A DNA stretch of 32,000 bases from Candidatus Saccharimonadota bacterium (GTDB taxonomy: Bacteria > Patescibacteriota > Saccharimonadia > Saccharimonadales > Saccharimonadaceae). Below are positions 5,735 to 14,742 of the stretch, piece by piece (the first letter of the stretch is position 1; each line of letters opens with the position of its first letter). The position numbers were made by a program, and so were the translations under genes. Below the pieces are notes generated by a model, which made no database searches, was not told the origin of the DNA, and saw nothing but the letters and a program-made list of their open reading frames with translations. The stretch is taken from contig CP060232.1 of the NCBI GenBank assembly GCA_023898645.1, positions 270,001 to 302,000 on the forward strand, given 5' to 3'.

Positions 5735-6112
5735 ATGTCAAATATACTACTTGTAGAAGATGAAAAGGTGTTGCGTGACGCATATACTATATTGCTTAAT
5801 TCTCAGGGTGGTTATAATGTTCAAACTGCCAGTAACGGCAAAGAAGCGCTTGAGTATCTCGAGCACAACTCGTACGATTTGATATTGCTAGATATTATGA
5901 TGCCTGTTTTGGACGGCATAGGATTTTTAAAGGAAGGAATGCTTTCCGAAAAATCACCGAATACTCGGGTAGTAGTGCTGAGCAATCTATCTGGTGGTCA
6001 GGAAGTCAAGGAAGCCATGAGACTCGGCGCCCATAGGAGCGCCGTAAAGTCCGATCTTGGTCCCGGCGACGTGATGACAATTGTCCAAGAAGAACTTGCT
6101 AAATTGAAATAA
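5735..6112 (+). CDS. Single-domain response regulator (CheY-like receiver only)
   Basis: 125 aa. LLVEDE...DLILLDIMMP (phospho-acceptor Asp)...VVVLSNLS...AVKSDL (conserved Lys). No output domain. TGCTATAAT at 5670-5678, a leader hairpin at 5690-5709 and GGTGA 8 nt before the ATG. Confidence 0.85.
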   Translation: MSNILLVEDEKVLRDAYTILLNSQGGYNVQTASNGKEALEYLEHNSYDLILLDIMMPVLDGIGFLKEGMLSEKSPNTRVVVLSNLSGGQEVKEAMRLGAHRSAVKSDLGPGDVMTIVQEELAKLK

Positions 6113-6117
6113 CTAAG

Positions 6118-7260
6118 TTATCGGGCTGCCATGCCTTTTTGTGGAATTTGTACGTAAAACGTCGTACCTTTGTGTTCGGTACTTTCAAACCAGATTTTAC
6201 AACTTGAAGCATCGAGCATCATTTTTATGAGGTAAAGTCCGATTCCTGTACCTACCTCGCCACTTTTGACTGCGTTATTTGCACGAAAGAAGCGATTAAA
6301 AACATATTCTTTAGCTTCTTCTGGTACGCCGATTCCGTTGTCTTTTACAGCCAGTAAGTAGCCTTTGTTGTTTTTAATAAATGCCACATCGATGACTCCT
6401 TCATCGTGTTTTGTATATCGTATGGCGTTTGTGAGTAGATTGTGAATGACCTGATCAAAAATAGTAACATCTACCGGCACGTCTTCTATAAGCGCATCGG
6501 GCGTGAACTTTATTGTGATGTTTTTTTCTTTTGCAAGCGGGCTAATTTCATTTATATGTTTTGCCAAAAGATCATTGATGTTCATCGGCGTAGGTTTAGT
6601 GGCGAAATTTCCAAGCTCAACCTTAGAAATATTGAGGATGTCGTCTACGAGTTTGATTAATCGAATACTGGAATCCGTTATCTGATTCATGGGAGCCGAC
6701 TGCTTTTGCTTAACAGGACCGAACGTGCCGCCTGTGAGCATTTCGCTATAGACTCGTATAGCAGTCAGAGGAGTGCGTAATTGATGCGATACGAGCGATA
6801 TAAATTCATCTTTTGCGTTGATTAGTTGTATCTGTTTGGTGACATCTTGAAGGGAACCTATGACCCTTTGCGGCGTGCCGTCGTGCGCGCGCTGTATGAT
6901 TGATCGGCTGTGGACGAATATGTAATTTCCGTCAGCTTTTCGGAATCTATAGTCTGATTCCCATGTATTTTGCCTACTCTCTAGCCATTTACTGATTTCA
7001 ATTTCGAAAAGCAAAGAGTCTTCGGGGTGGACGCGACTTATCCACCAGTCTAGTGTGTTTACACGCTTAGTTCTGCGGTAGCCGCAGTGTTTATATAGTG
7101 CATCGTTCCATGAGACGGTTCCATGCTGCAGGTCGATGTCGTACAGTACGTCATTAGTTGCCTCGAAAAGTAGTCGGTATCGATGGACTGTCTCACGAAG
7201 TTGTTTCTCAAGTTCGTTCGCACGCTTTTTGTGCTTCGGGCGGATTGAACTTAAATCCAT
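6118..7260 (-). CDS. Soluble PAS-domain sensor histidine kinase
   Basis: Track ORF starts at TTG 7284. I prefer ATG 7260 (MDLSSIRPK...) because TGGTATCAT (7267-7275, reverse) lies 6 nt upstream. H-box SHQLRTPLTAI, N-box HNLLTNAIRYT, G-boxes DNGIGVP and GTGIGLYL. PAS-like VSWNDALYKHCGY...YRFRKADGNYIFV. No TM helix. Confidence 0.85.
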   Translation of the reverse strand: MDLSSIRPKHKKRANELEKQLRETVHRYRLLFEATNDVLYDIDLQHGTVSWNDALYKHCGYRRTKRVNTLDWWISRVHPEDSLLFEIEISKWLESRQNTWESDYRFRKADGNYIFVHSRSIIQRAHDGTPQRVIGSLQDVTKQIQLINAKDEFISLVSHQLRTPLTAIRVYSEMLTGGTFGPVKQKQSAPMNQITDSSIRLIKLVDDILNISKVELGNFATKPTPMNINDLLAKHINEISPLAKEKNITIKFTPDALIEDVPVDVTIFDQVIHNLLTNAIRYTKHDEGVIDVAFIKNNKGYLLAVKDNGIGVPEEAKEYVFNRFFRANNAVKSGEVGTGIGLYLIKMMLDASSCKIWFESTEHKGTTFYVQIPQKGMAAR

Positions 7261-7378
7261 ATGAAAATGATACCATAAATACAACTTTCTGTAAAAAAAT
7301 TATTATGATATGGAATTGGTAGAAGATACGTATTAAGGTGTCGGGTGGCTACTGTGGTTACTCGAAATAAGTACAAAG

Positions 7379-9203: not shown

Positions 9204-9587
9204 TTATCGCTTTTTTGAAGATTTGCCAATCGAGCCTAGATGTGTGTGATGAAATCCGTTTGCATGTTTGAGACCGAAGCCCAGCGCGCGATCAACGAAA
9301 ACGTGAAATAGCCATAGCGTAGCGATAAATAGTGCGATTTCGTTGCTCGTGAGGATGTAGCTTGTGATGAGCACACCCGGGCCAGCAAGACTATGACCAA
9401 TGTTATAGGTGATTGCTCCGACTCCGTTATTAATCAGGTAGCCGACCATGGAGACGTCAAATAGTAAAAACCCGACGAGTAGCCACCACCAGTCGAACCG
9501 GCCTATTACAACGAAAAATAATGCTGTAAGCACGGCAGCAAAAAGGTACTCGAAACTGATGATTGCTTTCATGGTTTTGGAATGCAT
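9204..9587 (-). CDS. DUF4260-like small integral membrane protein
   Basis: 127 aa with 3-4 hydrophobic helices. The C-terminal HVFVDRALGFGLKHANGFHHTHLG matches my recollection of the DUF4260 signature. TGCTATAAT (9595-9603, reverse) lies 7 nt upstream of the ATG. Confidence 0.6.
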   Translation of the reverse strand: MHSKTMKAIISFEYLFAAVLTALFFVVIGRFDWWWLLVGFLLFDVSMVGYLINNGVGAITYNIGHSLAGPGVLITSYILTSNEIALFIATLWLFHVFVDRALGFGLKHANGFHHTHLGSIGKSSKKR

Positions 9588-9676
9588 AAGAAGTATTATA
9601 GCAGATGGCGGCGAGACGATTAGAGGTTGGGGCGGCGAGACAGCGCTCTATCCGCTTGATAGCGTATTTCACTTCT

Positions 9677-9732
9677 CCGTTCATTCGTTCAGAAAAATAC
9701 TTCGTGCTTTTCTTCACTTCATTCACTGCGCC
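9677..9732 (-). repeat. tRNA-terminator-associated conserved element, copy B (core)
   Basis: Reverse strand reads GGCGCAGTGAATGAAGTGAAGAAAAGCACGAAGTATTTTTCTGAACGAATGAACGG. An adjacent hairpin at 9732-9764 is CGAACTC-CTTTTGC-ttt-GCAAAAG-cc-GAGTTCG. Confidence 0.8.
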
Positions 9733-9780
9733 GAACTCCTTTTGCTTTGCAAAAGCCGAGTTCGATCTCGTCCGGCCAAA

Positions 9781-9823
9781 CCAAAGAAAAAATCCATGAA
9801 TTGATCATGGATTTTTTCTTTGG
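9781..9823. terminator. Hairpin terminator downstream of tRNA-Gly; stem includes the tRNA CCA
   Basis: CCAAAGAAAAAATCCATGA (9781-9799) pairs perfectly with TCATGGATTTTTTCTTTGG (9805-9823). That is a 19-bp stem with a 5-nt loop. A/T runs on both sides suggest bidirectional function. Confidence 0.8.
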
Positions 9824-9895
9824 TGCGGGCGGCGAGAATCGAACTCGCATCGTTTGCTTGGAAGGCAGACATATTAGCCATTATACGACGCCCGC
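9821..9895 (-). tRNA. tRNA-Gly (anticodon TCC), CCA encoded
   Basis: Reverse complement: GCGGGCGTCGTATAATGGCTAATATGTCTGCCTTCCAAGCAAACGATGCGAGTTCGATTCTCGCCGCCCGCACCA. Cloverleaf is good and the anticodon loop is CTTCCAA. Confidence 0.85.
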
Positions 9896-9951
9896 AGGAC
9901 TCATATGATTATAGCAAAATTTGCTATACTACTAAGCATAACGATAATTAT

Positions 9952-10338
9952 ATGGCAGATTTAAACCAATTTCTCAACAAAGACCTGACGGCAGGTGACG
10001 TCATGCACAGTAGTGGCATGGGCTCTGTAGCGGGTGGTGGCGGTGCTGGCGGTTTGTCTATGGATCAACGTCGTAAACTATTAAACCAGCCACGGGTTGT
10101 CAGCGCATATCATTATTCCAGACTCGGCCGCCAAGGTTCGGCCTCCAAAGCCCGCACTGCCGATCAAGAAGGCACCAGGGTGTATGATGCCAGCGCTGAT
10201 ACCTTTAATGACAAGGCTTCGTACAGTAATCGTCAGCAGGGAAGTATCAAAAATAAACGCCAAATCGACACTAAATCAGTCGAGCGTCGTCAGCATTATA
10301 TGGAACCAACACCGCGCAACTACGACAAATTTTCATAG
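9952..10338 (+). CDS. Hypothetical low-complexity (Gly/Ser/Gln/Arg-rich) protein
   Basis: Track ORF 9820..10338 trimmed to ATG 9952 (MADLNQFLNK...), because its 5' part overlaps tRNA-Gly on the other strand. TGCTATACT at 9922-9930. A terminator-like hairpin CCGCAA-tcg-TTGCGG followed by a T-run lies at about 10374-10397. No family recognised. Confidence 0.5.
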   Translation: MADLNQFLNKDLTAGDVMHSSGMGSVAGGGGAGGLSMDQRRKLLNQPRVVSAYHYSRLGRQGSASKARTADQEGTRVYDASADTFNDKASYSNRQQGSIKNKRQIDTKSVERRQHYMEPTPRNYDKFS

Positions 10339-10477
10339 CATCTGTGTAATCACGCATTTATGTAAACAATCTCACCGCAATCGTTGCGGATGTTTTGCAT
10401 AATAATGATTGAAAAGTGTGCTCGGTGCGCACGGGCATACCAAACATAAGAGCATAAGTTTAAGGAGGGTAAAAACT

Positions 10478-10849
10478 ATGGGCTATTATTATGGTCACTT
10501 TAATAACTACAACCACTATCCACACTACGGTGGCTACAACAACTACAGGTATTACGGAAACTACAATCGCTACGCTTGGGGCAACCCTTATACGGCGTAT
10601 TCGTATGCGAATCGGTGGTACCCAGGCTGGAATGCTTACAACTACGGTTTCTACAATAACTGCTACTACGTCTATATGAGGAGTGGCTACAATTACCGTA
10701 CGGTTGTGATTGGACCAAACTACGGCCTACGCAACTACTACAACGGTTATTACGCAACACCATATAACTACGGCTATGGTAATGGGTACTATGGAAACGC
10801 CAGTTACAACGCCAACTACAATCTTAACGCCAATTATAACTACAATTAG
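10478..10849 (+). CDS. Tyr/Asn/Gly-rich small protein (paralogue 1), unknown function
   Basis: Track ORF 10409..10849 trimmed to ATG 10478, which is preceded by AAGGAGGG (10462-10469). 123 aa with 38 Tyr by hand count. The core NRWYPGW...YRTV...NYG is shared with 11009..11530 and differs only by synonymous changes. Its own terminator is at 10943-10978. Confidence 0.75.
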   Translation: MGYYYGHFNNYNHYPHYGGYNNYRYYGNYNRYAWGNPYTAYSYANRWYPGWNAYNYGFYNNCYYVYMRSGYNYRTVVIGPNYGLRNYYNGYYATPYNYGYGNGYYGNASYNANYNLNANYNYN

Positions 10850-10942
10850 TGAGTAGGCTATAGCATATTCTAGCTAGCGACATTAGAAGTTGCACCAAGT
10901 AGTCTAGATGGCAGATAAATACGAGAGTTTTAAACAAAATAT

Positions 10943-10978
10943 ACAAGTAAAACCCTGCGTTCGTGGGGTTTTACTTGT
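10943..10978 (+). terminator. Rho-independent-type terminator after the Tyr-rich gene
   Basis: ACAAGTAAAACCC (10943-10955) pairs with GGGTTTTACTTGT (10966-10978), a 13-bp stem. Confidence 0.7.
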
Positions 10979-11008
10979 CAGGAAGCTATATATAGCCAGG
11001 AGGGCATC

Positions 11009-11530
11009 ATGATCGATCATAATCAGTTAAATTCATATCCACAGTATTCGCATAACAACTATGCGCAATATGCACAGGCGCCAAATCACGGCAACAATCC
11101 GAACGGAAATCACAACAACGGTCAGAATTGGAACCAGGGACATAACCAAAACGGCAACCACAACAACGGTCAGAATTGGAACCAGGGACATAACCAAAAC
11201 GGCAACCACAACAATGGCCAGAATTGGAACCGCGGACACAATCAAAACAGGAACCATGGATATTGGCCGGGGTGGCATGGGCCACACGGCTGGCGTAACC
11301 CGGGTGGCTATCATGGCGGTGGTTACTATCATGGCGGTTGGCAGACTGGCAACAATACCGTTGTGGTTTGGGTTAATCGTTGGTATCCGGGCTGGCAGGT
11401 CTACAGATGGCGCTGGGACGGTTACAACAACCGCTGGGTAGTCTGGATCAGGAACGGACCGGTATATAGGACTGTGTATGTCGGTAACAATTACGGTTGG
11501 CATAACTATCGTAGTGGGTATGTCTGGTAA
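11009..11530 (+). CDS. His/Asn/Gly/Trp-rich small protein with tandem repeats (paralogue 2), unknown function
   Basis: 173 aa. AGGAGGG (10998-11004) lies 4 nt before the ATG. Three 16-aa repeats NGNHNNGQNWNQGHNQ. The C-terminal aromatic domain VNRWYPGWQVYRWRWDGYNNRWVVWIRNGPVYRTVYVGNNYGWHNYRSGY is homologous to paralogue 1. Confidence 0.75.
   Translation: MIDHNQLNSYPQYSHNNYAQYAQAPNHGNNPNGNHNNGQNWNQGHNQNGNHNNGQNWNQGHNQNGNHNNGQNWNRGHNQNRNHGYWPGWHGPHGWRNPGGYHGGGYYHGGWQTGNNTVVVWVNRWYPGWQVYRWRWDGYNNRWVVWIRNGPVYRTVYVGNNYGWHNYRSGYVW
11102..11245 (+). repeat. 3 x 48-nt in-frame tandem repeat inside CDS 11009..11530
   Basis: The units are 11102-11149, 11150-11197 and 11198-11245. Units 1 and 2 differ at 2 nt and unit 3 is more diverged. 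Confidence 0.9.
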
Positions 11531-11544
11531 TTACTCTCTGCAGT

Positions 11545-11583
11545 AAAAAGAATAGAACCGGCACAAGACCGGTTCTATTTTTT
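11545..11583. terminator. Bidirectional hairpin terminator shared by CDS 11009..11530 (+) and tRNA-His (-)
   Basis: AAAAAGAATAGAACCGG-cacaaga-CCGGTTCTATTTTTT. It has A-run and T-run flanks and abuts the tRNA-His CCA. Confidence 0.75.
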
Positions 11584-11661
11584 TGGGGCGAATGATGGGG
11601 ATCGAACCCACTACCTTCGGAACCACAACCCGACGCTCTAACCAAATGAGCTACATTCGCC
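11584..11661 (-). tRNA. tRNA-His (anticodon GTG) with encoded G-1 and CCA
   Basis: Reverse complement: G-GCGAATGTAGCTCATTTGGTTAGAGCGTCGGGTTGTGGTTCCGAAGGTAGTGGGTTCGATCCCCATCATTCGCCCCA. The anticodon loop is TTGTGGT. The extra 5' G opposite discriminator C73 is the tRNA-His hallmark. Confidence 0.85.
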
Positions 11662-11726
11662 GCATTAACGTGCATAGTCACCCGTAGGGTGAACGTAACA
11701 ACTATACCACAAATAACAGAGATAAT

Positions 11727-13256
11727 CTATATCTCGCGGATGGTTTCTATGTGCGCACCAAGACTGTTGAGCCGGTTGGCAAAATCCTCATATCCACGGT
11801 TGATCGAGTAAACGTCGCGTAATATAGAATCTCCAGGAGCCGCTAGCATGGCTAGCAATACAACGACAGACGGTCGTAATGCTGGAGGTGCCGTGACATC
11901 CGCAGGCTTCCATTTGGTAGGTCCGGTTACATACACGCGGTGCGGGTCGAGAAGTTCCACGGAGGCATTGAGCTTTGTCAGTTCGGTAAAGTAAATTGCG
12001 CGATTTTCGTAAGACCAGTCGTGAATCATCGTACGGCCATTCGCGGTTGTGGCAATAAGGCCCATGAAGGGCAGGTTGTCCATATTGATACCCGGAAAGG
12101 GCAGGGCGTGCAACTTGTCCTTGGCGGCTTTCAGTTTAGAGTGTTTCAAGTGAATGTCTACTAAGCGGGTGTGGCTGTTTTTTGCTAGGTACTCATCACT
12201 CAGCTCGTACTGCAGCCCCATTTCAGCTAGTGTTGCCAGTTCAATTTCCAGGAATTCAATCGGTGAACGCTCTATGGTGATTTCACTTCCAGTAACTACA
12301 CCGGCGGCGATGAAGCTCATAGCTTCAATAGGGTCTTCGCTTGGGTAATATTCGACATCTTTGTTTATGTATGATACGCCGGTGATGTGGAGCGTTGTCG
12401 TGCCGATGCCTTCAATTTTGACGCCAAGTTTTTTCAGAAATACGCACAGGTCCTGAACTGCATAGTTAGCGCTGGCGTTTCTAATTGTCACGGTACCTTC
12501 GTGAAGCGATGCTGCCATGATGACGTTTTCGGTCACGGTGTCACCGCGTTCTGTGAGAACGATTGTGTGATCAACTTTTTTCGGCGAAGACGTTGCGCTG
12601 TAGTAATTAGTGGTCGCTTCTACCTCTAGACCGAAAGGACGCAAGCCAGTCATGTGCGGCTCTACCGTACGAGTGCCTAAGTTGCAGCCACCGGCAAAGG
12701 GTAGGTGAAAGTTGCGGTATTGGTGCAGAAGTGGGCCCAGGAACATGATAATCGTTCGTGTGCGTTTTGCAGCAGCGACGTCCATGTCTTCAAGCTTTAG
12801 TTTCTTAGGCGGGATGATTTCTAGGTCGCCGTCATCGTTGAGCCAGCGGACTTTGACGCCGATACTTTGTAGCACTTCGACGATGCGGTTTACTTCTTCT
12901 ATTTTGGCAACGTGGCGTAGTACTGTTTTGCCATGGTTAAGGAGGCTGGCGCAAAGCAGAGCAACTGCGGCGTTTTTGCTAGTCTTAACCGTGATGTTCC
13001 CCGACAGCTTAGAGCCGCCATGCACGCGAAAGTTAATCTTGCCCGTTTGATTGAGTGTCATGATATCGTGAGACAACACATCGCTGATGCGGGCAATCAT
13101 CTCAAGACTAATGTTTTGGCCGCCTTTTTCGATACGGTTAATTGCGCTCTGGCTAGTACCAAGCGCCTCTGCTAATTGTGCTTGTGTAAAGCCACGATTC
13201 TGTCGACTTTCTTGAATGAGATTGCCGATTTTAAGTTTGTAATCTTGAGGGGTCAT
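11727..13256 (-). CDS. murA: XRE-type HTH domain fused to UDP-N-acetylglucosamine 1-carboxyvinyltransferase (MurA)
   Basis: 509 aa. Residues 10-62 form an HTH (RGFTQAQLAEALGTSQSAINRIEKGGQNISLEMIARISDVL). From about residue 73 the sequence is MurA-like (INFRVHGGSKLSGNITVKTSKNAAVALLCASLL; LPFAGGCNLGTRTVEPHMTGL). The catalytic Cys is at residue 191, which is E. coli Cys115 plus about 76. Confidence 0.85.
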   Translation of the reverse strand: MTPQDYKLKIGNLIQESRQNRGFTQAQLAEALGTSQSAINRIEKGGQNISLEMIARISDVLSHDIMTLNQTGKINFRVHGGSKLSGNITVKTSKNAAVALLCASLLNHGKTVLRHVAKIEEVNRIVEVLQSIGVKVRWLNDDGDLEIIPPKKLKLEDMDVAAAKRTRTIIMFLGPLLHQYRNFHLPFAGGCNLGTRTVEPHMTGLRPFGLEVEATTNYYSATSSPKKVDHTIVLTERGDTVTENVIMAASLHEGTVTIRNASANYAVQDLCVFLKKLGVKIEGIGTTTLHITGVSYINKDVEYYPSEDPIEAMSFIAAGVVTGSEITIERSPIEFLEIELATLAEMGLQYELSDEYLAKNSHTRLVDIHLKHSKLKAAKDKLHALPFPGINMDNLPFMGLIATTANGRTMIHDWSYENRAIYFTELTKLNASVELLDPHRVYVTGPTKWKPADVTAPPALRPSVVVLLAMLAAPGDSILRDVYSINRGYEDFANRLNSLGAHIETIREI

Positions 13257-13464: not shown

Positions 13465-14742
13465 ATGAATGATACACAGGTTGCTGATTTGATTGCAGGA
13501 GAAGAGCGTCGCGAACGAGACGGACTCGAGCTTATTCCTAGTGAGAACTATGTATCTGCTGACGTGCTGAAGGCGCTTGGTAGTGTGTTTACGAACAAAT
13601 ATTCCGAAGGCTACCCAGGTAAGCGGTATTACGGGGGTCAGGAATTTACTGATCAAATTGAACAATTGGCGATTGACCGTGCAAAACAGCTTTTTGGTTC
13701 CGATCACGCAAATGTACAGCCGCATTCCGGTGCTCAGGCGAACGAAGCGGTTTATCATGCCTGGTGCGAACCAGGCGACACGATTTTGGCCATGGATCTT
13801 AGTCATGGCGGTCATCTGACACACGGCGCACCTGTGACGGTATTGGCTCGTAGCTTCAACTTTGTCCGCTATAAGATGAAAGACCCGTCAACCGGTGAAA
13901 TCGACTACGACGAACTACGTCGTCTTGCGCTGGAGCACAAACCGAAGATTATACTGGCCGGCTTTAGCGCGTATCCACGTGAACTAGACTATGCTAAATT
14001 TGCCGAAATCGGTAATGAGATTGGCGCGTTGCTCGTAGCGGATATGGCACATATTGCCGGGCTTATTGCCGGCGGCGTAGCAAAGAATCCGTTTGACTAT
14101 GGTTTCCATGTCGTTACGACTACTACGCACAAAACATTACGTGGTCCGCGTGGTGGTTTGATCTTGAGCAAGGGCGTGGTGAGTAATCCTCTGAAGGCCC
14201 CGGAGAAGACAATAGAAAACATCCCCACGCTGATTGACCGTACAGTGTTTCCTGGAGTACAGGGTGGCCCGCATATGCATGCTGTTGCGGCAAAGGCTGT
14301 GGCATTCGGCGAAGCACTCAAGCCAGAGTTTAAGGCGTATGCTGAACAAATCGTCAAAAACGCCGCTGTACTAGCCGACGAGTTGCAAAAACACGGTTTC
14401 CAACTCGTTACCGGCGGCACGAGCAATCACCTTATACTTGCTGACGTGCAGAAATCATTTGGCATCGATGGTAAGGTAGTCGAGCAGGCACTCGACAAGA
14501 TCGGTCTGACGCTCAATGCCAACGCAGTGCCAGACGATACGCTGCCTCCGTTTAGGCCAAGCGGTATACGATTGGGCACGCCAGCCATCACTACTCGTGG
14601 CTTGCGCGAGCAGCATATGGTTCAGCTGGCGGAGTGGATGAAACGGGCGGTTGACGCACATGATGACGACATTACGCTGGCGAATCTTGGCGAAGAAGTC
14701 AAAGAATTTGTACAGACGTTTCCTTTGCCCAGCGATAAGTGA
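13465..14742 (+). CDS. glyA: Serine hydroxymethyltransferase
   Basis: 425 aa. LELIPSENYVS, KYSEGYPGKRYYGG, SHGGHLTHG and the PLP-lysine motif TTTTHKTLRGPRGG. Confidence 0.95.
   Translation: MNDTQVADLIAGEERRERDGLELIPSENYVSADVLKALGSVFTNKYSEGYPGKRYYGGQEFTDQIEQLAIDRAKQLFGSDHANVQPHSGAQANEAVYHAWCEPGDTILAMDLSHGGHLTHGAPVTVLARSFNFVRYKMKDPSTGEIDYDELRRLALEHKPKIILAGFSAYPRELDYAKFAEIGNEIGALLVADMAHIAGLIAGGVAKNPFDYGFHVVTTTTHKTLRGPRGGLILSKGVVSNPLKAPEKTIENIPTLIDRTVFPGVQGGPHMHAVAAKAVAFGEALKPEFKAYAEQIVKNAAVLADELQKHGFQLVTGGTSNHLILADVQKSFGIDGKVVEQALDKIGLTLNANAVPDDTLPPFRPSGIRLGTPAITTRGLREQHMVQLAEWMKRAVDAHDDDITLANLGEEVKEFVQTFPLPSDK

Follow-up and report, generated by a model that had tools for sequence, protein, structure and literature searches.

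A new family of aromatic core-domain proteins at a variable-copy site in Saccharibacteria-like genomes

Low-complexity, prion-like segments are known from proteins such as yeast Sup35 (N domain), FUS (LC domain) and Rho of Clostridium botulinum (a candidate prion domain). Small Tyr-rich proteins have also been described: CotC and CotU of Bacillus subtilis are paralogues rich in Tyr, Lys and Asp and without a signal peptide, which are made in large amounts in the sporulation programme and assembled into a matrix. Known PepSY/BLIP-like proteins are periplasmic or secreted, carry signal peptides and are built of tandem repeats. Patescibacteria, Saccharibacteria among them, have tiny genomes with a large share of unassigned genes, and orphan families are common there; families that can be defined precisely are rare. 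One such family is described herein, at a locus within a 32,000-nucleotide (nt) stretch of contig CP060232.1 of Candidatus Saccharimonadota bacterium. This whole stretch is called the window, and L001-L027 are related loci or contigs fetched for comparison. The locus encodes three small proteins, P0, P1 and P2. P1 and P2 are anciently diverged tandem paralogues, and they share a core domain that is outside the known families.

The core-domain family and its variable slot

In a composition-adjusted BLASTP comparison, amino acids (aa) 39-91 of P1 matched aa 117-171 of P2 with 27 of 55 positions identical (49%, E = 9e-13), and the shared core is about 57 aa long. Over 53 aligned core codons, 15 of the 27 identical residues are specified by different codons; the proportion of synonymous differences is 0.93 (saturated), and that of nonsynonymous differences 0.36. 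P1-type members, including those called L019a and P0004, form a separate clade in the tree, and the duplication is therefore old. An identical P1 sequence occurs in several metagenome assemblies and is carried by the samples SRR28385526, SRR12358676, SRR14234111 and ERZ28655178, and P1 orthologues 71-88% identical were found in three further lineages (L005, L007 and L010), each of which holds P0, P1 and P2 in the same order with frames, starts and stops conserved. The P2 orthologues are 146-175 aa long, with a variable arm and a conserved core. Between lineages synonymous divergence (dS) is saturated, while nonsynonymous divergence (dN) is 0.05-0.25 for P1, about 0.10 for the P2 core and 0.14-0.58 for the P2 arm, which thus evolves several-fold faster than the core. 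Where dN/dS could be computed it was 0.04-0.16 for P0, P1 and P2, and 0.05-0.08 for the P2 core. Such a low dN at saturated dS indicates that all three genes are protein-coding and under purifying selection. An earlier note on this DNA had given the three open reading frames (ORFs), their frames and the shared codon blocks with exact coordinates, and had taken P1 and P2 for paralogues under purifying selection; the BLASTP match, a dN/dS not near 1 and the retention of the frames in relatives bear this out.

P1 contains 38 Tyr (31%), 27 Asn (22%), 16 Gly and 6 Arg in 123 aa and no Asp or Glu, so that Tyr, Asn and Gly together make up 66% of the protein; the earlier hand count was right for Tyr and Gly and slightly too high for Asn (about 30). 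A Tyr/Asn/Gly-rich N-terminal arm (aa 1-36) is followed by the core (aa 37-91, nt 10586-10750) and an Asn/Tyr C-terminal tail (aa 92-123). P2 contains 40 Asn (23%), 28 Gly, 16 Tyr, 16 Trp (9%), 15 His (9%) and 14 Gln. Its low-complexity arm, rich in Asn, Gly, His, Gln and Trp, runs from aa 1 to about aa 114 (31 Asn, 22 Gly, 14 His, 13 Gln and 8 Tyr in 114 residues), and a canonical C-terminal core (aa 117-173, nt 11357-11527) ends the protein. Within the arm, Tandem Repeats Finder detected 3.2 copies of a 48-nt repeat with a 90% match at 11102-11256, which encodes NHNNGQNWNQGHNQNG. The exact P2 sequence is not on record, probably because short-read assembly breaks off or goes wrong at these repeats, or because populations are not uniform in them. 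Four independent assemblies with an identical P1 (L001-L004) stop at the start of P2, and the P2 arm of L008 is frameshifted.

The His content of P2 had prompted the suggestion of a His-based metal-binding or metal-storage protein. The 15 His of P2 lie mostly in the repeat, and its orthologues keep 11-13; counted in the arm, the range among P2 orthologues is 9-14. However, they are isolated, without HH or HxH clusters, unlike the clustered and conserved His of His-rich metal binders, and they sit in an arm whose dN reaches 0.58. Most family members have 1-5 His (members other than P2, 0-13), with few in the N/Y, N/P/Y and N/W arms of single-copy members, and there are no metal-related neighbouring genes or family matches. 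The suggestion fails at the level of the family, and for P2 itself a metal-binding role is highly improbable.

An exhaustive search of 1.84 billion representative proteins with the core profile returned 12 clusters at E <= 1e-3, all of 68-175 aa. Word-indexed searches gave three and eight matches, named at most "hypothetical protein", and the same kind of search with the P2 core alone gave no candidates. A scan of GTDB species genomes yielded two loci, L011 (labelled Candidatus Saccharibacteria) and L012 (labelled Patescibacteria), and the more conserved P0, used as a probe, led to 17 further metagenome loci. The family is confined to one narrow group within the Patescibacteria, with Saccharibacteria-like genomes. 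Its core of about 57 residues contains 19-37% Trp, Tyr and Phe across members, is invariant family-wide at W-x-P-x-W, Y-x-T and a C-terminal G, and spans net charges from -3 to +7. A canonical member is built like P2: its N-terminus is polar (often M-x-Y-Y...P-Q-T-Y), an arm of 29-116 aa comes next, and the core closes the protein at ...G-Y-x-W/Y. P1 represents a derived subfamily with an additional Asn/Tyr/Gly tail. Each protein has one or two fast-evolving arms beside the core, with much Asn, Gly, Tyr, His, Gln, Pro or Trp and almost free of acidic or aliphatic residues; their composition varies by lineage (N/Y, G/P/N/H, N/P/Y or N/W), and across the family composition is kept while sequence drifts.

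No known family accounts for these proteins, as the earlier note had supposed for the core. P1 and P2 gave no match at E <= 1-10 in Pfam, NCBIfam, PHROG or PADLOC; 21 core-family members searched against Pfam at E <= 10 gave only three unrelated single chance matches; and neither single-copy members nor the Trp-rich ORFs described below fell into an NCBIfam family. Searched against PDB sequences, the core-family and P0 profiles found chance matches only (E 0.08-1.7 for the two). A megablast of the locus region against plasmids and a family-profile scan of viral contigs were likewise negative, and a literature search tying Saccharibacteria to tyrosine-rich or prion-like proteins turned up nothing relevant. 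The core family is new and undescribed.

The genes of this family stand within a constant backbone. In all loci the order is tRNA-Gly(-), P0(+), a variable interval, tRNA-His(-), a helix-turn-helix (HTH)-MurA gene(-) and SHMT(+). The interval holds no core-domain gene in L015, L018 and L022-L027, where the end of P0 lies about 35-170 nt from tRNA-His; one in L011, L012, L016, L017 and L021; two in the window, L005, L007, L010 and L019; and three in L013. The P1/P2 family is thus an accessory cassette at a fixed address, in a slot of zero to three copies between P0 and tRNA-His. The earlier note had wondered whether the flanking tRNA-Gly and tRNA-His were related to the composition of the proteins, but the same tRNAs flank zero-copy sites (L015, L018 and L023-L027), and single-copy members are not His-rich.

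The same note had described a locus of three small, compositionally extreme proteins. P0 is indeed a real gene, but it belongs to another, independent and more widely conserved family and merely happens to be the upstream neighbour of P1 and P2; a more fitting description of the locus is one conserved gene, P0, followed by a cassette that varies. P0 is a polar, basic and probably disordered protein with a GGGGAGG run, 127-133 aa long and 63-87% identical across the window and 23 related loci. It accompanies all related loci, whether or not P1/P2-type genes are there, and invariably follows tRNA-Gly (or a Cupin_2 gene) as the next gene. An alignment over seven lineages has 47 invariant columns, with a dN of 0.19-0.30 and a dN/dS of 0.08-0.16 between lineages, at which distance dS is saturated. 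P0 matched no family in Pfam, NCBIfam, PHROG or PADLOC, and a Pfam scan of the P0 family gave one chance match only. A sequence identical to P0 of the window is recorded at NCBI as USN96828.1, "hypothetical protein". There is no Shine-Dalgarno (SD) site upstream of P0, and comparable A/T-rich sequence precedes it in relatives.

Expression signals and Trp-rich mini-ORFs

P1 and P2 have the best SD matches in the window. Of the other long ORFs, 28 in number, three match the anti-SD sequence over 6 nt (one of them AGGTGA), none over 7 nt, and most not at all. At the fetched loci, GGAGG-type SD sites precede all 18 core-domain genes and all four Trp-rich ORFs. As a rule, genes of this genome appear to be translated from leaderless or short-leader mRNAs, with P1 and P2 as exceptions, and strong SD sites in a mostly SD-less genome suggest that these proteins are among the abundant ones under some condition. 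Several long ORFs of the window carry a (TGn)TATAAT-like box no more than about 10-15 nt from the start codon, e.g. 9204-9587(-), 13465-14742(+) and 9952-10338(+). The earlier observation that the SD sites of P1 and P2 are unusually strong for the window, and that each gene has its own terminator, was sustained; the P1 hairpin was not called by the terminator scan, and its block (AAAACCCTGC..GTAGGGTTTTGCTT) is conserved in four lineages.

The promoter box, the -10-like element and the 5' leader block upstream of P1 are listed in Table 1. The leader block is an imperfect palindrome or hairpin (TATGYYCG...CGGGCATA), and its 24-mer does not differ between any contigs of the four lineages with P1 (window/L001-L004, L005/L006, L007-L009 and L010) despite saturated dS; the spacer between P0 and P1 is far more conserved than synonymous sites. 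RNAalifold predicted a weak leader hairpin (-4.5 kcal/mol, one covarying pair), and the palindrome may equally be a DNA operator. A search of 9500-12000 against Rfam found the two tRNAs only, with everything else far below gathering scores, and hence no match to a riboswitch or leader RNA. The window contains a single TGTAA-N29-33-CATAAT, where 0.10 would be expected. Across the fetched loci this pattern lies solely 5' of core-domain genes or Trp-rich ORFs, except for an antisense match inside P1 of L007, L008 and L009. The promoter and leader motif stands before the first core gene, or the only one, in 11 lineages, and also before some later core genes and two Trp-rich ORFs; besides the window, it precedes core-domain genes in L011, L012, L013, L016, L017, L019 and L021. 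In the spacer between P1 and P2 of the window, conservation is limited to the P1 terminator and the P2 SD site, and P2 may owe its transcript to read-through or to a weak promoter that belongs to it.

In four relatives a Trp-rich mini-ORF lies in or beside the slot; the window has none. All four encode Trp/Gly-rich products of 36-56 aa, three of which are also Asn/Cys-rich and end in W(R/C)RWW(W); that of L019 (MWGLGMGLGW...) is Gly/Leu-rich and ends in ...CRWGGCW. Examples are MWGWNNNNWWNWNVGWGTGNTGWGGGWNNACNLWNTGWNACNTGWNNCWNTWRRWW, MWWNSCWSWCTSWCGGWSNSWNNCWNNSWNSWCRWW and MWGGWNNNWWNWNAGWGTGNVGWGGGWNTACNWWNTGWNNCWNTCRRWWW. Every mini-ORF has an AAGGAGG-type SD site and a strong terminator, and those of L012 and L016 are preceded by the promoter box and leader architecture of the core genes. 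None belongs to an NCBIfam or PADLOC family. A promoter architecture common to core genes and mini-ORFs suggests a small regulon under some regulator or sigma factor.

Abundant products of such composition could serve as an arylphorin-like reserve of amino acids (Tyr, Trp, Asn, His and Arg) in an auxotrophic symbiont. The Tyr and Asn of P1 (31% and 22%) and the Asn, Trp and His of P2 (23%, 9% and 9%) fit a reserve, as do the strong translation signals, the dedicated and apparently regulated promoter, the variable copy number and the use of the same promoter by the Trp-rich mini-ORFs of L012 and L016. Storage, however, needs no conserved folded core under strong purifying selection, and the arms differ by lineage (G/P-rich in L005 and L010), so that no consistent set of stored residues emerges. 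Moreover, we know of no bacterial precedent for amino-acid reserve proteins of this sort. We consider an amino-acid reserve very improbable.

Predicted fold and possible roles

The C-terminal 90 aa of P2 and the full-length P1 were modelled with AlphaFold2 in two independent runs, one for each protein, both from a 13-sequence alignment, and the two agree on the core. In the P2 model aa 117-125 form a helix and aa 130-137, 142-149 and 152-159 form strands, with a predicted local distance difference test (pLDDT) score of 80-88; the P1 model has a helix at 37-47 and strands at 52-59, 62-69, 72-78 and 84-88, with a core pLDDT of 76-80. In both models the arms or flanks fall below 50. The core is thus predicted to be one helix packed on a three- to four-stranded antiparallel sheet. 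Foldseek searches with both models against PDB, and with the P2 model against BFVD, returned nothing at E < 0.2.

The top neighbours of the P1 model, all non-significant, were BLIP-like/DUF2874 (PepSY-like) structures (4fr9, 4k61, 4hbr and 3db7; E 1.4-2.8), with 4fr9 aligning over 50 columns at a root-mean-square deviation of 2.3 Å (E 1.4, prob 0.77). We take them as a lead only. Followed up, this lead would make the core a divergent PepSY/BLIP-like alpha+beta unit that modulates one partner, e.g. a protease or a wall enzyme, with the arms as mere linkers. The predicted helix on a three- to four-stranded sheet and the strong conservation of the core agree with such a unit. However, none of the E-values is below 0.2, the P2 model returns none of these neighbours, and no PepSY-type Pfam match appeared at E <= 10 in 21 members. 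In addition, the known proteins are extracytoplasmic while those of the window and the family lack an export signal, and no conserved partner gene lies nearby. A PepSY/BLIP-like modulator is improbable on this evidence.

Other weak Foldseek neighbours included the alpha-beta-beta-beta RNA- or DNA-binding units of SRP9/14, dsRBD and AP2. The proteins might accordingly bind nucleic acids through Arg and aromatic residues on a small beta-sheet with prion-like arms, as an RNA chaperone or a nucleoid- or ribosome-associated factor. The majority of cores carry a basic net charge (+3 to +7) and many Arg and aromatic residues, and the proteins appear, by their sequence features, to be cytoplasmic and highly translated. 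Yet some cores are neutral or acidic (L011, -1; L013c, -3; L019b, -2; and P0018, a further family member, -3), none of the structural matches reaches significance (E > 1), close relatives do without the genes, and no RNA-binding motif or family was matched. Nucleic-acid binding is quite improbable as the role of the family.

The destination of the proteins is better constrained. No 15-aa window of P0, P1 or P2 has a mean Kyte-Doolittle value above 0.73, and without a hydrophobic segment none of the three has a signal peptide or a transmembrane (TM) helix, as had been noted for P1. All 25 family members have polar N-termini, and no signal peptide, lipobox, TM segment or sortase motif was found in about 25 members. 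The lack of a signal peptide throughout the family speaks against a surface protein exported by the Sec route. Export by a non-Sec route would make the proteins an adhesive or matrix layer, or a host-interaction factor of an epibiont, with the aromatic domain binding polysaccharide or peptidoglycan. The range of zero to three copies and the fast-diversifying arms are both typical of interaction or surface genes; the aromatic-rich sheet exposed in the models would resemble carbohydrate-binding surfaces; the Trp/Cys-rich mini-ORFs of L012 and L016, which share the promoter motif, look peptide-like; and the N-terminal M-x-Y-Y...P-Q-T-Y recurs in many members. Against these points stand the missing export and anchoring signals just described, the lack of a linked transporter, secretion or processing gene in any locus, and the lack of a match to any carbohydrate-binding, cell-wall-binding or bacteriocin family. 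We regard non-Sec export as unlikely, if less so than a PepSY/BLIP-like modulator.

The reading that we tentatively favour, while holding it to be somewhat doubtful, is that P1/P2-type proteins are abundant, regulated, cytoplasmic proteins that act by self-association into a condensate, gel or matrix. Its grounds are their composition, the disorder predicted for them and their translation signals. Asn, Gln, Gly and Tyr abound in the arms, which are poor in charged and aliphatic residues and predicted to be disordered (AlphaFold2 pLDDT < 50), as is usual for prion-like composition, and the earlier idea of a self-assembling, phase-separating or amyloid-like protein is compatible with these features. 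A specific regulatory condition would bring about abundant synthesis of the proteins in the cytoplasm. The folded core would then oligomerise through exposed Trp/Tyr/Arg faces, and the arms would act as prion-like "sticker-spacer" segments that give multivalent self-association. The outcome would be a condensate, gel or solid matrix, protective or related to dormancy, or a scaffold or reserve, rather than an enzyme.

Several observations weigh against self-association. The invariant W-x-P-x-W, Y-x-T-V and G-Y of the core suggest a defined ligand or partner rather than generic stickiness. The core charge of -3 to +7 makes a single electrostatic mode of assembly unlikely. P2 of the window lacks the shared promoter box, the AlphaFold2 models are moderately confident only and are built on 13 sequences, and the proteins may yet leave the cell by a non-classical route.

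In a broader and more speculative form, which we think unlikely, the core proteins and the co-regulated Trp-rich mini-proteins would together constitute a lineage-specific, inducible, aromatic self-assembling material, built on a small alpha/beta fold not seen before and driven by a dedicated promoter/operator. Such a material might serve inside the cell, as a condensate or dormancy matrix, or as an adhesive released by a non-classical route; if so, ultra-small symbionts would possess a class of structural or phase-separating proteins that is new for bacteria. Should self-assembly hold, the family would offer a compact, tractable bacterial model of aromatic-driven assembly; should the proteins instead bind a partner or the host envelope, they could help to explain how ultra-small epibionts live, a physiology that is poorly understood. 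In either case the family is defined by its domain, its invariant residues, two subfamilies, a variable-copy slot at a fixed address, and a promoter and leader shared with at least two Trp-rich mini-proteins, and it merits a Pfam entry.

Features of the locus and known systems

Table 1. Features of the P0-P1-P2 locus (window positions unless a related locus is named)
Feature	Position	Strand	Basis or remark
tRNA-Gly(tcc)	9821..9895	-	ARAGORN; Rfam tRNA 59.6 bits; left border, fixed in all relatives
P0 promoter-like TTGCTA-16-GATAAT	9921..9948	+	Consensus scan; ends 3 nt before P0 ATG; leaderless-type start
P0, 128 aa	9952..10338	+	ORF confirmed
Promoter box TGTAAACAATCTCAC, consensus TGTAAG-N4-CTYAC	10361..10375	+	Recognisable in 11 lineages
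P0 terminator hairpin CCGCAA-TCG-TTGCGG, then T-run	10375..10389	+	Scan; retained with compensating changes in L010
Invariant -10-like CATAAT	10398..10403	+	About 22 nt after the box; 11 lineages
5' leader block AAGTGTGCTCGGTGCGCACGGGCATA (TATGYYCG...GCGCACGGGCATA)	10414..10441	+	Recognisable in 11 lineages
P1 SD site AAGGAGG	10462..10468	+	GGAGG-type in all orthologues
P1, 123 aa	10478..10849	+	ORF confirmed
P1 terminator-like hairpin AAAACCC...GGGGTTTT with T-rich tail	10949..10976	+	Direct reading; missed by terminator scan
P2 SD site AGGAGG	10998..11003	+	Spacer conservation among relatives
P2, 173 aa	11009..11530	+	ORF confirmed
Bidirectional terminator AATAGAACCGG-CACAAGA-CCGGTTCTATT	11551..11579		P2/tRNA-His gap; scan and direct reading; T-run on + strand
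tRNA-His(gtg)	11584..11660	-	ARAGORN; Rfam 62.7 bits; right border of the site, fixed
HTH-MurA-type fusion gene	11727..13256	-	Downstream of tRNA-His
SHMT	13465..14742	+	Downstream of the HTH-MurA-type fusion gene
Trp-rich mini-ORFs	L012:10327-10497; L016:1981-2133; L013:6442-6552; L019:3979-4119	+ (all)	In or beside the slot

Upstream, the locus is neighboured by a DUF4260 gene and a histidine-phosphatase gene. The HTH-MurA-type gene, which adjoins tRNA-His in all relatives, encodes 509 aa with an XRE-type HTH (aa 11-61) and a complete MurA/EPSP-synthase-fold domain; this fusion could be a ligand-sensing regulator or a regulated MurA. A few kb upstream of the locus lie genes for a stand-alone receiver-domain protein (5735-6112, +) and a PAS-HisKA-HATPase histidine kinase (6118-7284, -), both of which are kept in L001, L005 and L007. 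The taxonomic labels in this group conflict: the metagenome-assembled genome (MAG) of USN96828.1 (1.13 Mb) is labelled Candidatus Nomurabacteria, and L011 (CAYZPD010000004.1), in which genes and tRNAs around the locus follow in the same order, bears the label Candidatus Saccharibacteria. Probably one of the two labels is imprecise. The gene order of the locus, including five tRNAs, matches the Saccharibacteria-labelled MAG, and on this basis we place the host among the Saccharibacteria-like Patescibacteria.

Two other interpretations of the DNA were considered and rejected. A mobile island targeted to a tRNA gene would leave direct repeats involving the tRNAs or an integrase in the neighbourhood, neither of which is present; it is also countered by a window-like GC content (0.45-0.49) and by the identical backbone in all relatives. 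Long antisense or off-frame ORFs at 11033-11503, 11007-11285 and 10500-10763, all on the minus strand, are by-products of a periodic, low-complexity codon composition; the plus frame is preferred because the SD sites, the conserved starts and stops and the low dN/dS are found there.

Compared with known systems, the family shows partial likenesses only. The P2 arm, rich in His, Gln, Asn and Gly, recalls the His-rich metal-storage proteins Hpn and Hpn-like of Helicobacter, but its His amount to 9% of P2 and are unclustered, and the arm is particular to P2 orthologues rather than family-wide. The short W-Y-P-G-W of the core has a Trp-x-x-Gly-Trp-like spacing, which had faintly suggested the WXXGXW/YXWGXW repeat proteins of Pfam; this resemblance did not hold up, as the motif occurs once per protein, not as a repeat, and 21 members gave no Pfam match to it at E <= 10.

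The PepSY/BLIP-like proteins (DUF2874-type; 4fr9, 4k61, 4hbr and 3db7) share with the core a domain of about 50-60 residues with a predicted helix on a three- to four-stranded antiparallel sheet. Unlike them, the core family has a single unit, no export signal, extreme aromatic content and low-complexity arms, and the resemblance comes from non-significant structural matches (E 1.4-2.8) with no sequence-profile match.

CotC and CotU, likened here by general description only, are also small, paralogous, very Tyr-rich and without a signal peptide. No sequence similarity to them was detected in any search, and to our knowledge Patescibacteria do not sporulate.

If self-association holds, the nearest known kind would be the low-complexity, prion-like self-assembling proteins. 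The members of the core family have no homology to these, are very small (68-175 aa) and are far more aromatic (P1 has 31% Tyr). Nonetheless, they have in common with them arms that are rich in Asn, Gln, Gly and Tyr, poor in charged and aliphatic residues and joined to a folded domain, with Tyr and Arg as the likely stickers.

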